Positions 14,127 to 31,524 of a DNA stretch of 64,000 nt are shown one piece after another. Location of the stretch: sequence record ON528745, one strand, 5' to 3'. This stretch comes from Shigella phage ESH35. Below the pieces are notes generated by a model. That model had not been told where the DNA came from, ran no database searches, and was given only the letters and a program-made list of their open reading frames with translations. Every line of letters begins with the position of its first letter. Position 1 is the stretch's first letter. A program made the position numbers and the translations under genes.

Positions 14127-14813
14127 ATGAAACTGTCTAAAGATACTACTGCTCTGCTTAAAAATTTCGCTACTATTAACTCTGGTATTATGCTTAAATC
14201 AGGTCAATTTATTATGACTCGTGCGGTTAATGGTACAACTTATGCGGAAGCAAATATTTCTGACGTTATTGATTTTGATGTAGCAATTTACGATTTGAAC
14301 GGTTTTCTCGGTATTCTGTCTCTAGTTAATGATGATGCAGAAATTTCCCAGTCAGAAGATGGAAATATTAAAATTGCTGATGCCCGCTCAACAATTTTTT
14401 GGCCAGCAGCCGATCCGAGTACAGTAGTTGCTCCTAATAAACCAATTCCATTCCCGGTAGCATCTGTTGTTACTGAAATTAAAGCTGAAGACCTTCAACA
14501 GCTGTTGCGTGTATCTCGTGGTCTGCAGATTGATACAATTGCTATCACGGTAAAAGAAGGTAAAATCGTAATTAACGGTTTTAATAAAGTAGAAGATTCT
14601 GCTCTTACCCGTGTTAAATATTCTTTGACTCTTGGTGATTATGATGGTGAAAATACATTTAATTTCATTATCAATATGGCAAATATGAAAATGCAACCAG
14701 GAAATTATAAACTTCTGCTCTGGGCAAAAGGTAAACAAGGCGCTGCTAAATTTGAAGGTGAACACGCGAATTATGTAGTAGCTCTTGAAGCTGATTCTAC
14801 CCACGATTTTTAA
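14127..14813 (+). CDS. 45: sliding clamp
   Basis: 228 aa; position in the 45-44-62 operon. Confidence 0.92.
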   Translation: MKLSKDTTALLKNFATINSGIMLKSGQFIMTRAVNGTTYAEANISDVIDFDVAIYDLNGFLGILSLVNDDAEISQSEDGNIKIADARSTIFWPAADPSTVVAPNKPIPFPVASVVTEIKAEDLQQLLRVSRGLQIDTIAITVKEGKIVINGFNKVEDSALTRVKYSLTLGDYDGENTFNFIINMANMKMQPGNYKLLLWAKGKQGAAKFEGEHANYVVALEADSTHDF

Positions 14814-14816
14814 TAG

Positions 14817-14832
14817 AGGGCTTCGGCCCTTT
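14817..14832 (+). terminator. UUCG-tetraloop hairpin after gene 45
   Basis: AGGGC-ttcg-GCCCT then TTT. Confidence 0.5.
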
Positions 14833-14864
14833 ATAATTTACACTAAAACTTGAATGAGGAAATT

Positions 14865-15824
14865 ATGATTACCGTAAATGAAAAAGAACACATTCTTGAA
14901 CAGAAATATCGTCCATCTACTATCGATGAATGTATTCTTCCCGCCTTTGATAAAGAAACCTTTAAATCTATTACAAGTAAAGGTAAGATTCCACATATTA
15001 TTCTTCATTCTCCTTCTCCAGGAACAGGTAAAACAACTGTAGCAAAAGCATTGTGTCATGATGTAAATGCTGATATGATGTTTGTGAATGGGTCAGATTG
15101 TAAAATTGATTTCGTTCGTGGTCCTTTGACTAATTTTGCCAGCGCCGCTTCATTTGATGGTCGTCAAAAAGTAATCGTTATTGATGAATTTGACCGTTCA
15201 GGGTTAGCAGAGTCTCAGCGACATCTTCGTTCCTTTATGGAAGCTTATAGTTCAAACTGCAGTATTATTATTACTGCTAACAATATTGATGGTATTATTA
15301 AACCGCTTCAGTCACGCTGTCGAGTTATTACATTCGGTCAACCAACTGATGAAGATAAAATTGAAATGATGAAGCAGATGATTCGTCGATTAACTGAAAT
15401 CTGCAAGCATGAAGGAATTGCTATAGCTGATATGAAAGTTGTAGCAGCTTTGGTTAAAAAGAATTTTCCTGATTTTCGTAAAACTATTGGTGAGCTCGAT
15501 AGTTATTCATCTAAAGGTGTTTTGGATGCTGGTATTTTATCACTGGTTACTAACGATCGTGGTGCTATTGATGATGTTCTTGAATCTCTCAAAAATAAAG
15601 ATGTTAAACAGCTCAGAGCTTTAGCGCCAAAATATGCAGCTGATTATTCGTGGTTCGTAGGTAAACTTGCCGAAGAAATCTATACACGCGTAACTCCACA
15701 AAGTATTATTCGTATGTATGAAATTGTTGGTGAAAATAACCAGTATCACGGAATTGCGGCTAATACTGAATTACATTTAGCATATCTTTTCATTCAATTA
15801 GCATGCGAAATGCAGTGGAAGTGA
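14865..15824 (+). CDS. 44: clamp loader large subunit (AAA+)
   Basis: 319 aa from internal ATG; Walker A GTGKTT; matches recalled T4 gp44. Confidence 0.92.
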
Positions 15825-27241: not shown

Positions 27242-28270
27242 ATGTCATTAATACCTTGGATTGATAATGAGTTTGCATACCGTGCATTGGCTCATTTACC
27301 TAAATTCGCACAAGTAAATAATAGTTCAACTTTTAAATTACGGTTTAGATGTCCCGTTTGTGGAGATTCAAAAACCGATCAAAATAAAGCCCGTGGATGG
27401 TATTATGGCGATAATAATGAAGGAAATATTCATTGTTATAACTGTAACTATCATGCACCAATTGGAATATATTTAAAGGAGTTTGAACCTGATTTATATC
27501 GTGAGTATATCTTTGAAATAAGAAAAGAAAAAGGTAAAAGTCGTCCAGTAGAAAAACCTAAAGAACTTCCTAAACAACCTGAGAAAAAAATAATTAAATC
27601 TCTTCCGTCATGTATTAGATTAGATAAACTGGCGGAAGACCATCCAATTATAAAATATGTAAAAGCTCGTTGTATTCCAAAGGATAAATGGAAATATCTT
27701 TGGTTTACAACCGAATGGCCTAAATTAGTTAATAGTATAGCGCCAGGAACATATAAAAAGGAAATACCTGAGCCTCGTCTTGTTATTCCAATTTATAATG
27801 CTAACGGAAAAGCCGAGTCTTTTCAAGGCCGTGCATTAAAGAAAGATGCTCCTCAAAAATATATCACCATAAAAGCTTATCCTGAAGCAACAAAAATCTA
27901 TGGCGTTGAACGAGTTAAAGATGGTGATGTATATGTTCTAGAAGGACCTATAGATTCACTTTTTATTGAAAATGGTATAGCTATTACGGGTGGTCAATTA
28001 GACCTAGAAGTTGTTCCATTTAAAGATAGACGTGTGTGGGTTTTAGATAATGAACCTCGTCATCCTGACACTATTAAACGAATGACTAAATTAGTTGATG
28101 CAGGAGAAAGGGTTATGTTTTGGGACAAATCTCCCTGGAAATCAAAAGATGTTAATGATATGATTAGAAAGGAAGGTGCAACCCCTGAACAAATTATGGA
28201 ATATATGAAAAATAATATTGCTCAGGGGTTGATGGCTAAAATGCGGTTATCTAAATATGCTAAGATTTAA
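27242..28270 (+). CDS. 61: DNA primase
   Basis: 342 aa; N-terminal zinc-binding CPVCGDS...CYNCN; TOPRIM-like region. Confidence 0.92.
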   Translation: MSLIPWIDNEFAYRALAHLPKFAQVNNSSTFKLRFRCPVCGDSKTDQNKARGWYYGDNNEGNIHCYNCNYHAPIGIYLKEFEPDLYREYIFEIRKEKGKSRPVEKPKELPKQPEKKIIKSLPSCIRLDKLAEDHPIIKYVKARCIPKDKWKYLWFTTEWPKLVNSIAPGTYKKEIPEPRLVIPIYNANGKAESFQGRALKKDAPQKYITIKAYPEATKIYGVERVKDGDVYVLEGPIDSLFIENGIAITGGQLDLEVVPFKDRRVWVLDNEPRHPDTIKRMTKLVDAGERVMFWDKSPWKSKDVNDMIRKEGATPEQIMEYMKNNIAQGLMAKMRLSKYAKI

Positions 28271-28467
28271 ATTAACCCAACTAAAGCGAATGCTAAATCT
28301 ACAAATGTATCAAGAGTAACTACTGGAATATTAATACCATGTGCAATTGCAACAGGTGATAGAATAAAGTTCCAGAGTAAAATTCCTACCATAGCAGAAA
28401 TAGTAAAAGCTATACGTTTTTTATTACCTTTTATGGCATTAACAAGTGCCATTAATTTTTGTACCAT
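28267..28467 (-). CDS. antisense small hydrophobic protein (66 aa)
   Basis: strong AAGGAGG SD 4 nt upstream; tail-to-tail 4-bp overlap with gene 61; two hydrophobic segments. Confidence 0.35.
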   Translation of the reverse strand: MVQKLMALVNAIKGNKKRIAFTISAMVGILLWNFILSPVAIAHGINIPVVTLDTFVDLAFALVGLI

Positions 28468-29385: not shown

Positions 29386-29394
29386 ATAATTTAA

Positions 29395-29418
29395 GGAATC
29401 CTCCGGGATTCCTTTTTT
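29395..29418 (+). terminator. rho-independent terminator after soc
   Basis: GGAATCC-tccg-GGATTCC then TTTTTT. Confidence 0.7.
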
Positions 29419-29428
29419 CATTTTATGG

Positions 29429-29457
29429 TTTACATGTCAAAATGAGTGTGGTATAAT
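29429..29457 (+). promoter_or_regulatory. T4-type early promoter
   Basis: TTTACA, 17 bp, TGgTATAAT. Confidence 0.6.
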
Positions 29458-29483: not shown

Positions 29484-29696
29484 ATGTTAAATCGTTGGAT
29501 TAAACCAAATGAAGACCTCCAGAAGGTTCTTGATAAAGCTATCGCTGATAAATGGGGTATGAAAAGCTGGGATTGTGATGTCGTCACGCATTCATTCATG
29601 ATGCACGCAGATGGTTCAGTCGAGTTCAATGCTGAAATGCGATATACTGACTGGGGTGGATTTCAAAGAGTCGAATTTCAAAGAGGATTTTTGTGA
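29484..29696 (+). CDS. hypothetical protein (70 aa)
   Basis: ATG with AGAGGAG SD. Confidence 0.45.
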   Translation: MLNRWIKPNEDLQKVLDKAIADKWGMKSWDCDVVTHSFMMHADGSVEFNAEMRYTDWGGFQRVEFQRGFL

Positions 29697-30037
29697 TGTT
29701 TATCTTTAATTGGTTTAAAAGTTTCTTTACGGATTTTTTCTCTACGACTCCTGGGGAAGGTGTAGTTCCTATTTCAAATGACTACCTCCCTTTAACTGTA
29801 GTTGAATATGTTTATATGGGAGATGGAACAGTAGAAGCAGTTACTATGACTTATGAAGAAGCCCAAGAATATTATAAAAATCCTTGGCGCTGGTCAACAC
29901 CTACTACATCATCTAATACGCAGAATACACAGTCTAGTTCTGATTCATATGACACTAATGTTCCTGTTCATGTATGGACGGGCGATTCGTGTGGAAGTTC
30001 TTGCGATTCTAGTTGTTCATCTACATCATGCGATTGA
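29696..30037 (+). CDS. hypothetical protein with Ser/Cys-rich C-terminal tail
   Basis: hydrophobic N-terminus; C-terminus [18 protein letters not shown]. Confidence 0.45.
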
Positions 30038-30045
30038 GGAAAAAT

Positions 30046-30531
30046 ATGGAAGCGATTTTGTTTGAAATGTATATTAGCAGTAATAGCATGTCGTTTGCTA
30101 AAGACGTTCCAATTACCGTAGCAGTAATGATTGATAAGGGTTATTGTGACCCAATGTATCTCGTAGAAAATTTTGTTTCAATGCCAGTTCCAGAAGATGC
30201 TGAAATAAAACTTAAAAAGATTGGTATTATTGAAACTGTACCAAATATTCCGTTTAGAGCAATTGAAGCATTTACTAAATCTGAATACATTAATGTTAGC
30301 ACAGAACATTATAATGATAAACCTTTATCTTTCTATTCGTATGATTCAGTATATAGTTGGAAAATAGATAAAGGAAATAAATTTATAATTGTGAGTGAAG
30401 ATGCTTTATCATACTTTATTTCTTCTGTATGGAATAGTTTACATCCAAATTTGCTAAAAATTCATGAATTTGATGATGCTCCTACTGTTGTTTTAGGTAA
30501 AACAAATGAAAGTTCTGAAGAAAATGTTTGA
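30046..30531 (+). CDS. hypothetical protein (161 aa)
   Basis: internal ATG of track ORF with GAGGA SD. Confidence 0.45.
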
Positions 30532-30709
30532 ATGGTTCAATAGACCAAACTCAATGTACATTGATGATGGTTGGGTTGAACAAGCAAATAAAGAAATGCA
30601 GAACGAGTCAGAAGAATGGATGAAATCAATGATTAGTGCTGAGAAAGAAAAGAAATTAGAACGCTCAGCGCTTAAATTGATGAGAGACATCTATGGTGAT
30701 AAATCATGA
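30524..30709 (+). CDS. hypothetical small protein (61 aa)
   Basis: internal ATG overlapping previous stop. Confidence 0.35.
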
Positions 30710-30870
30710 CCAAAGATATGACGTTAGAAGAGGCTAAAGCTAAAGCAAATGAAGCCTTGGATTTGCTTCTTAAAATTGGCAGTAAAATGATGGAAGAAAA
30801 TGAGAAGTATATCCAGGAAAATAAAATTCCTGACGGTCCATTAGTAGGCAAAAGGAAATCACATGATTGA
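30706..30870 (+). CDS. hypothetical small protein (54 aa)
   Basis: ATGA overlaps at both ends. Confidence 0.3.
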
Positions 30871-31333
30871 AGTAGCAAAATTATATTCAATAGAATTTAT
30901 GTCCAAAGAAGGTAAATCAGTAAATACACTTGATAAAAAATGCTCATTGATTATTCCTTTAGCAGAAAATCCGGATTTTTTAATTAAAGATATAAAAGAA
31001 AGAAAATATCCAGAAAATGTTATTCTAATTATAAAGCATACTGAAGATATTTTGCAGAATACTGATTCACCGTTTTCTTCTTCTGAAGCTTTAACTATTA
31101 AAGGCTATAAAAGAGCTCATGAATATGGTCTTTTTGACCTGTTTGAAGATGATAAAGTTAAATTAGCGAGTCAGCCTTTTAAAAGTAAAACATTCATTAT
31201 TGAAGATATTAAAGATATAAATGCATTTGTTAAGATGGTCTGGGCTCATTTTGATGTTGGACTACGCTGGAGAATGTCCGAAGAAGAAAGAAAGATTATT
31301 GAAGCTAATCGTCAATTTGGTTTTTATCGCTAG
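30863..31333 (+). CDS. hypothetical protein (156 aa)
   Basis: ATG ORF; sits where T4 mrh lies relative to modB, identity not established. Confidence 0.45.
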
Positions 31334-31341
31334 GAATTAAT

Positions 31342-31524
31342 ATGGATTTATTTGAGATGTTAGAAGATAATCATTCTACGAATATCCAGAATGATTCTAG
31401 TGATTATAAGAAAGAGTACCGTATAGTATTACAGAATTATGGAATTGAAGCCCCAGATGCTCTTCTAGAAGAACTAGCTTCATACCATCTTGACCCTCCG
31501 CCTTGGGCTCCCTGGGCAAAATAA
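31342..31524 (+). CDS. hypothetical small acidic protein (60 aa)
   Basis: ATG ORF. Confidence 0.35.
   Translation: MDLFEMLEDNHSTNIQNDSSDYKKEYRIVLQNYGIEAPDALLEELASYHLDPPPWAPWAK

Follow-up and report, generated by a model that had tools for sequence, protein, structure and literature searches.

A serine- and cysteine-rich C-terminal tail ending in Cys-Asp characterises the Mrh.1 (DUF7206) proteins of T4-like phages

The DNA analysed here, a stretch of 64,000 nucleotides from Shigella phage ESH35 (ON528745) that is referred to below as the window, belongs to a Tequatrovirus (T4-like) genome. The 2 kb around the open reading frame (ORF) under study are 97% identical to phages RB32 and RB33 and match 589 phage records. 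The genes follow the order 61 (primase), 56 (dCTPase), soc, mrh.2, mrh.1, mrh, srh, modA.4/.3/.2, modB, modA and srd, which is also the order of the RB32 annotation. The neighbours mrh, srh, modA, modB and srd are described as host-takeover modulators; for mrh and srh in particular, the role described is to modulate late transcription during heat shock or in rpoH mutants. The features of the locus are collected in Table 1.

Table 1. Features of the mrh.1 locus, in window coordinates, with the evidence for each.
Feature	Position	Strand	Evidence or remark
Intrinsic terminator after soc, 9-bp stem, T-run	about 29393..29424	+	sequence
Early sigma-70-type promoter, TTTACA-17-TATAAT, extended -10 TG	29429..29457	+	11/12 consensus matches
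mrh.2, 70 aa	29484..29696	+	phrog_1873; TGA stop overlaps mrh.1 ATG (TGATG at 29694-29698)
Shine-Dalgarno sequence GAGGA	29683..29687	+	8 nt 5' of mrh.1 ATG; read from sequence
mrh.1 CDS, 113 aa + stop	29696..30037	+	Pfam DUF7206, phrog_2031
N-terminal amphipathic helix, residues 3-15	29702..29740	+	AF2 helix, hydropathy, alignments
Beta-hairpin, residues 34-52, near-invariant E-Y-V-Y-M-G-D-G-x-x-E-x-V	29795..29851	+	AF2, alignments
Short helix, residues 53-66	29852..29893	+	AF2
Variable Thr/Ser/Gln-rich disordered linker, residues 67-93	29894..29974	+	pLDDT below 50, alignment A1
Conserved C-terminal tail, residues 94-113	29975..30034	+	alignments
mrh, 161 aa, next operon gene	30046..30531	+	Pfam T4_MRH; 8 nt past mrh.1 stop
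modA.4 homologue	30706-30870		
modA.3 homologue	30863-31333		
modA.2 homologue	31342-31524		

The ORF starts with an ATG that lies one codon downstream of an in-frame GTG (29693). The sequence and the ORF listing agree with the sequence-only reading of this DNA as to its general layout, an aromatic-rich hydrophobic start, a Thr/Ser/Gln-rich linker and a Ser/Cys tail. The protein matches Pfam DUF7206 (PF23836) over the entire profile (positions 1-107 of 107) with 103.1 bits against a cut-off of 25.6 (E = 1.5e-29), and phrog_2031, a group of unknown function, over its full length (E = 3.7e-33). Phage RB32 carries the same 113-aa CDS, annotated as mrh.1 and 'hypothetical protein'. Residues 1-94 are 100% identical to T4 Mrh.1 (UniProt P20706), the whole protein is 97% identical to an RB68-type cluster (n=515 sequences), and the alignments show all motifs of the family, namely the N-terminal WxK helix, the EYVYMGDG hairpin and the C-terminal ...SCD. 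It is near certain that the ORF is the ortholog of the T4 early gene mrh.1 and a DUF7206 member; it has the same synteny as the T4 gene and differs from it in nothing of substance. Since both the gene and the family are already catalogued, the ORF is not a new entity.

NCBIfam gave nothing above threshold, the anti-defence and defence models of PADLOC gave no match at E <= 1, and sequence searches of the PDB, whether with the single protein or with the profiles of the family and of the tail, returned nothing significant; a match of GDSYSSG to a lipase in the PDB (E = 1.3) was attributed to chance. A literature search found no paper discussing Mrh.1, and 'mrh.1' occurred in the main text of none of the papers searched. 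What is new here is a family-wide definition of the tail (two Cys, a terminal Cys-Asp and S-[Y/C]-D units), the finding of this tail on other protein scaffolds, and the exclusion of a membrane or periplasmic reading.

Judging from its sequence, the promoter downstream of soc would drive mrh.2, mrh.1, mrh and the genes beyond. Translation of mrh.1 is probably coupled to that of mrh.2, because their start/stop overlap recurs in four (L008, L010, L012 and L014) of five loci examined from distant T4-like genera; in the fifth (L013), the ORF upstream of mrh.1 is an unrelated one. Digestion of Mrh.1 with trypsin gives peptides of 8, 53, 4 and 48 residues, of which, going by the size range usable in mass spectrometry, the hydrophobic 8-mer is the sole one of detectable size. 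The T4 transcript of mrh.1 (T4 coordinates 14685-15026, equivalent to 29696-30037 of the window) has been classed as 'early', and in the same time-resolved T4 proteome Mrh.2, Mrh and Srh were detected and Mrh.1 was listed as 'NA', that is, not detected (PMC9697503 Table S2). This absence says little, since standard proteomics with trypsin is in effect blind to a protein that yields a single tryptic peptide of detectable size. From the conservation at the protein level, we infer that mrh.1 is translated. The 39-56 region is reported to be non-essential under laboratory conditions, and phages with as much as 526 bp deleted around mrh.2 are viable (PMC8262927), so any role of mrh.1 is probably conditional.

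Two observations concern the annotation of the surroundings. In several GenBank Tequatrovirus records, for example ON528743.1 (RASTtk annotation), modA.4, modA.3 and modA.2 are called 'molybdenum ABC transporter, periplasmic molybdenum-binding protein', a label that looks like a collision with the gene name of bacterial modA and not like homology. Between the primase gene 61 and the dCTPase gene 56, the minus strand (28267-28467) carries a hydrophobic ORF of 66 aa (MVQKLMALVNAIKGNKKRIAFTISAMVGILLWNFILSPVAIAHG...), annotated in RB32 as 'similar to RB69ORF029w'. Its product resembles a small membrane protein, and its transcription would run opposite to that of the early genes.

An AlphaFold2 (AF2) model of Mrh.1, built with a 100-sequence alignment, contains a single confidently folded element, the hairpin, with strands at residues 34-40 and 46-52 and pLDDT values of 79-89. 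Most of residues 70-113 have a pLDDT below 50. The model of an RB69-type member has the same hairpin, followed by a helical basic linker and a disordered tail, and a Foldseek search of the Mrh.1 model against the PDB gave no significant fold match. Outside the tail, the alignments leave few near-invariant positions: K8, F15, P19 and the hairpin pattern E37-Y-x-Y-x-G-D-G...E47...V49. In other genera, the linker is basic and helical and includes a short hydrophobic stretch (IVVTAAAV). A member of 164 aa from Escherichia phage 235Ecol030PP (P0003) is a mosaic: between a T4-type N-terminus and a T4-type tail with four Cys, about 50 inserted residues match the RB69-type linker (MEEIIRQPEKAGNVG...KLKEHLD), which shows recombination inside the disordered linker. 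Two further sequences are probably assembly or sequencing artefacts. Both are database entries in which the N-terminus of Mrh.1 is fused to unrelated sequence. In one, an ENA entry of 150 aa (P0007), the upstream part looks derived from a eukaryotic repeat; the other (P0006, 141 aa) is a frameshifted read-through.

The N-terminal helix follows the family motif M-I-x-W-L-K-N-L-F, in a Tequatrovirus version that is one turn longer. Its hydrophobic moment is 0.39-0.47, and the highest Kyte-Doolittle mean over 19 residues is 0.84, whereas a cut-off of about 1.6 is in common use for membrane spans. The hydrophobic segment is broken up by K8 and D13, and in most relatives it is reduced to the nine residues MIxWLKNLF, after which the sequence turns polar, as in MINWLKNLFKTK of the RB69 type. 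Inspection of the N-terminus revealed neither the succession of a basic n-region, an h-region and a cleavage site nor a lipobox. The Srh orthologues (MKPLSWLKDWLDRPG...; srh at 30506-30709 of the window and at 1848-2048 of L010) begin much like Mrh.1 (MIRWLKNFFKIRPGEG..., 29696-29745), with W-L-K-x-x-[LF]-x-x-x-P as the common start motif. This likeness could reflect a common docking helix or a partial duplication; homology of the two N-termini (WLKxxF...P) is unsupported by BLASTP, the segment being too short.

The four Cys of this Mrh.1 are residues 99, 103, 107 and 112, with a spacing of 4-4-5, and D113 is the terminal Asp. In the curated alignment A1, C107 and C112 fall in two Cys columns that are invariant (13/13 sequences), and C99 and C103 are specific to Tequatrovirus, other genera having at these positions Ser or Tyr, a single-nucleotide change away from Cys. 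The 100-sequence MAFFT alignment instead places C103 in a Cys column conserved at 90%. The assignment of the first universal Cys thus depends on the alignment, the tail being of low complexity. Composition alone makes the tail only moderately unusual: at the Cys background of the window (1.3%), four Cys in 14 residues have P = 2.5e-5 per 14-residue stretch, and about 0.3 such stretches are expected among the large plus-strand ORFs of the window. No second ORF in the window has such a tail. That the tail is more than a product of chance follows from its conservation in homologues.

Viral contigs together with a profile search yielded 106 proteins, and a single-sequence search gave close relatives only. 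These proteins come from T4-like phages of Escherichia, Shigella, Serratia, Edwardsiella, Enterobacter and Cronobacter and from metagenomes; mapping of the host range by tblastn with divergent members returned Serratia phages only. Among the 101 full-length homologues, the tail ends in Cys-Asp in 99 and in Cys-Asn in two, and in none do residues extend beyond this pair. All 101 have at least two Cys in the tail, and 90 have exactly two in the whole protein, both of them in the tail. The conserved Cys tail, the loss of which in homologues had been named as the refuting observation, is thereby confirmed, and in the closer comparison of Cys spacing that had been called for, the two Cys themselves are kept but lie 5-13 residues apart, with a mode of 7. 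The regular repeat of Ser and Cys described earlier is real in this protein, with its four Cys, but is specific to Tequatrovirus; the family tail has two Cys, of which the last two of the Tequatrovirus protein would be the universal counterparts. Nor is the tail, described earlier as unusual for a phage early protein, unique to this one; it is the most conserved part of the family and defines mrh.1 across the T4-like phages.

The composition of the tail is narrow. The last 20 residues consist of 48% Ser, 17% Asp, 13% Gly, 10% Cys and 8% Tyr, and across 102 sequences they include no Lys, Arg, Glu, His, Gln, Leu, Ile or Met. In these 102 sequences, a tail Cys is followed by Asp 191 times and by another residue 21 times, and Tyr, Cys or Phe precedes a tail Asp in 285 of 365 cases. 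These counts show that the tail is built of S-[Y/C]-D units, typically three, with the two-Cys consensus SSYDSGS(S)CDSSSSSCD. Between genera, the Ser codons alternate between TCN and AGY and third positions vary while the peptide stays constant. Selection has therefore acted on the protein and not on DNA or RNA.

The same tail occurs on other scaffolds. Two proteins (P0108 and P0109) are without the hairpin and keep the helix, the hydrophobic stretch and the tail. P0108 is surrounded by unrelated small genes, and the contig of P0109 carries a family-A DNA polymerase, from which it follows that the phage is not T4-like. Small tail-bearing proteins without the EYVYMGDG hairpin are encoded on two non-T4-like contigs (L015, 4001-4294; L016, 3642-3920): a family-A DNA polymerase is present on one, an HNH-like ORF together with a Band_7 protein on the other. 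In a further protein (P0111), the tail SYDSPSCDSGSSFSGSCD goes with a different N-terminus that contains Cys; this protein was the single match of a 42-aa tail profile in 5.8 billion proteins, a result that is no census, as poly-Ser candidates probably filled the candidate list. The presence of the tail on different scaffolds points to the tail itself as the functional unit.

At the DNA level, the commonest form of the tail was scanned for as a single codon pattern (CD, five Ser-like codons, CD and a stop). Among viral contigs, the pattern was found in five T4-like contigs only (L009-L013; L008 is one of the same contigs). It was found in none of 185,579 bacterial and archaeal genomes, and its two matches in metagenomes, about the chance level, were both in unrelated Cys-rich proteins. 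At least in the scanned form, the tail motif thus appears to be specific to phages and not a copy of a host sequence.

Taken together, these features lead us to a tentative reading, which may well prove wrong, of Mrh.1 as a cytoplasmic, largely disordered effector. The N-terminal helix and the hairpin would dock to a partner or mediate self-association, and the flexible tail would be the working part, offering two conserved thiols, nearby Asp side chains and the free terminal carboxylate. With these groups, the tail might chelate a metal ion of the Zn or Fe type, or act on a host target as a dithiol/disulfide or covalent 'swinging arm'. Two-Cys proteins with the helical linker may complete a four-ligand site by pairing, and the Tequatrovirus form, which is without that linker, would hold four Cys in one chain; both arrangements suit a site with four ligands supplied by one chain or shared between two. 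The role is probably conditional, for example in host takeover, stress or counter-defence.

This reading is favoured by the retention of the two Cys in every homologue, amid many Ser and although one nucleotide change would turn Cys into Ser; this suggests that thiol-specific chemistry matters. On the same grounds, metal binding or modification of the tail would seem the most reasonable of the roles proposed by the sequence-only reading. Any mechanism has to accommodate the strict position of the motif at the free C-terminus and its last residue, which is Asp, rarely Asn and never Glu. The tail is acidic, its low pLDDT marks it as disordered, and the hydropathy of Mrh.1, which has no hydrophobic span, places it in the cytoplasm. 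Against the metal reading stands the fact that two Cys alone make no tetrahedral site, self-association being an assumption, and the variable spacing of the Cys, unlike the fixed geometry of a zinc knuckle, would argue against a rigid knuckle. The proposal as a whole is also weakened by the lack of tail structure in the AF2 model, the lack of sequence or fold matches in the PDB and the location of the gene in a region that is non-essential in the laboratory (PMC8262927).

Familiar Cys-containing sites can be compared with the tail. The sequence does not resemble a zinc ribbon or finger: there is no CxxC/CxxH knuckle pair, given the spacing in this protein and in its relatives, and no Pfam zinc-binding domain. 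Metallothioneins have a Cys content of about 15-30%, in CxC/CxxC clusters, and this likeness was discarded as well, with Cys at 4 of 113 residues here and two Cys in most relatives. A metal or disulfide site shared with the Cys of Mrh.2 (WDCDV) and of Mrh (GYCDP) was rejected because Mrh.2 has no such Cys in the RB69-, JS98- and related orthologs, relatives in which mrh does not adjoin mrh.1 either.

Closer analogues are flexible tails. SlyD and HypB have metal-binding tails rich in Cys, His and Asp, and the zinc hook of Rad50 takes two Cys from each of two chains. Mrh.1 resembles them in combining soft and hard ligands (Cys and Asp) in a flexible tail, and two Cys per chain in most members and four in Tequatrovirus would fit a site of the Rad50 type formed across two chains or within one. 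In contrast to these proteins, the putative metal-binding tail of Mrh.1 has no His and no CxxC knuckles and a Cys spacing of 5-13. The GGCGG-COOH carrier tail of SoxY and the CxxxxC shuttle tail of the R1 subunit of class Ia ribonucleotide reductase are disordered, thiol-bearing C-terminal 'swinging arms' in which the protein body docks and the chemistry falls to one or two thiols, and Mrh.1 likewise has a thiol pair at its C-terminus. It is, however, related to them neither in sequence nor in fold, is without an enzyme body, has Asp as its last residue and is spaced by Ser/Asp/Tyr.

Should this chemistry apply to the tail as such, the S-[Y/C]-D tail ending in Cys-Asp-COOH could be a portable, phage-specific thiol 'warhead' of an undescribed kind, which captures a metal or links itself by redox or covalent chemistry to a host target, and which the T4-like phages share, with occasional transfer to unrelated small proteins of other phages. 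We regard this generalisation as possible yet doubtful.

Among the alternatives, the tail may be a short linear docking motif, for instance a decoy or mimic, whose host or phage partner reads the free ...S-C-D terminus together with the S-[Y/C]-D units and is blocked or redirected by Mrh.1, much as the C-terminal peptides of SSB and FtsZ are recognised. In such a motif, Cys would contribute shape and hydrogen bonding and not chemistry. The strictly C-terminal, never extended position of the tail, its disorder, which is expected of a peptide that folds on binding, its occurrence on different scaffolds and the vicinity of mrh and srh, described as modulators of host transcription or heat shock, all suit this explanation. 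It fails to explain why Cys is never swapped for the similar and locally abundant Ser, the spacing between the motif elements is variable, and the absence of the scanned tail form from cellular genomes leaves no evident host sequence to be mimicked. On balance, we consider a docking motif somewhat unlikely.

A second alternative, which we take to be clearly unlikely, makes the tail a substrate for post-translational chemistry: a RiPP-like core with lanthionine, thiazole/oxazole or thioether links, a carrier loaded covalently on Cys or on the terminal Asp/Asn, as in SoxY and Pup, or a pseudo-substrate of a Ser/Tyr-modifying enzyme. All tail residues except Gly are potential nucleophiles, and the C-terminal 20 or so residues are rich in Ser, Cys and Gly like those of RiPP precursors (lanthipeptides, microcin B17) and class IIb microcins. 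There is even a weak match to the FxLD lanthipeptide precursor model TIGR04363 (E = 0.034), but its score of 14.1 bits is below the cut-off of 30, and the match is therefore compositional. Mrh.1 also differs from such precursors in its size, 113 aa with a folded hairpin in place of a leader plus core, in the absence of a leader, a double-glycine site or an export signal, and in its end, Cys-Asp and not Ser. Furthermore, the genes flanking mrh.1 in the window and in RB32 (soc, mrh.2, mrh, srh, modA.x, modB/modA) include no LanB/C/M, YcaO, radical SAM, dehydratase or cyclase gene and none for export. Pup, the prokaryotic ubiquitin-like protein, is small, mostly disordered and has a C-terminal Glu or Gln. 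Mrh.1 shares the small size, the predominant disorder and an invariant acidic or amide residue at its end, where the alternation of Asp and Asn (99 versus 2) recalls the Gln/Glu of Pup; the two proteins have no sequence similarity, however, which leaves an analogy only, and neither T4 nor the surroundings of mrh.1 are known to encode a PafA/Dop-type ligase.

Self-assembly, with IVVTAAAV and the [S/G]-Y-[S/G] repeats forming a cross-beta structure or a condensate stabilised by Cys, is suggested by the resemblance of SSYSSYDSGS to FUS-type low-complexity motifs and by the hydrophobic segment that precedes the tail in most genera. It is very unlikely: Tyr and the hydrophobic stretch are both missing from the Tequatrovirus form, which has nevertheless preserved its Cys and the tail end. 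The tail is also only about 20 residues long, and low-complexity domains do not typically show position-specific conservation such as that of the terminal CD. Export or membrane anchoring of a protein whose periplasmic domain is rich in disulfides, or acylation of its Cys, as proposed earlier from the aromatic-rich N-terminus and the four tail Cys, is hardly credible, since the N-terminus is neither a signal peptide nor a membrane span, the lipobox (L-[AS]-[GA]-C) that would mark a bacterial lipoprotein or S-acylated protein behind its signal peptide is absent, all Cys lie at residues 99-112, and most members have two.

Mrh.1 is one of many T4 early proteins to which no function is assigned, and it is conserved across the T4-like phages of enterobacteria. 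Its functional unit appears to be the C-terminal stretch of about 20 residues with two irreplaceable thiols and an obligatory terminal Asp, which provides a handle for experiments. If the tail does not prove to be a new metal-binding or covalent motif, Mrh.1 is an ordinary conserved ORF of unknown function; if it does, it would represent a new kind of short effector module in the biology of phages and their hosts.
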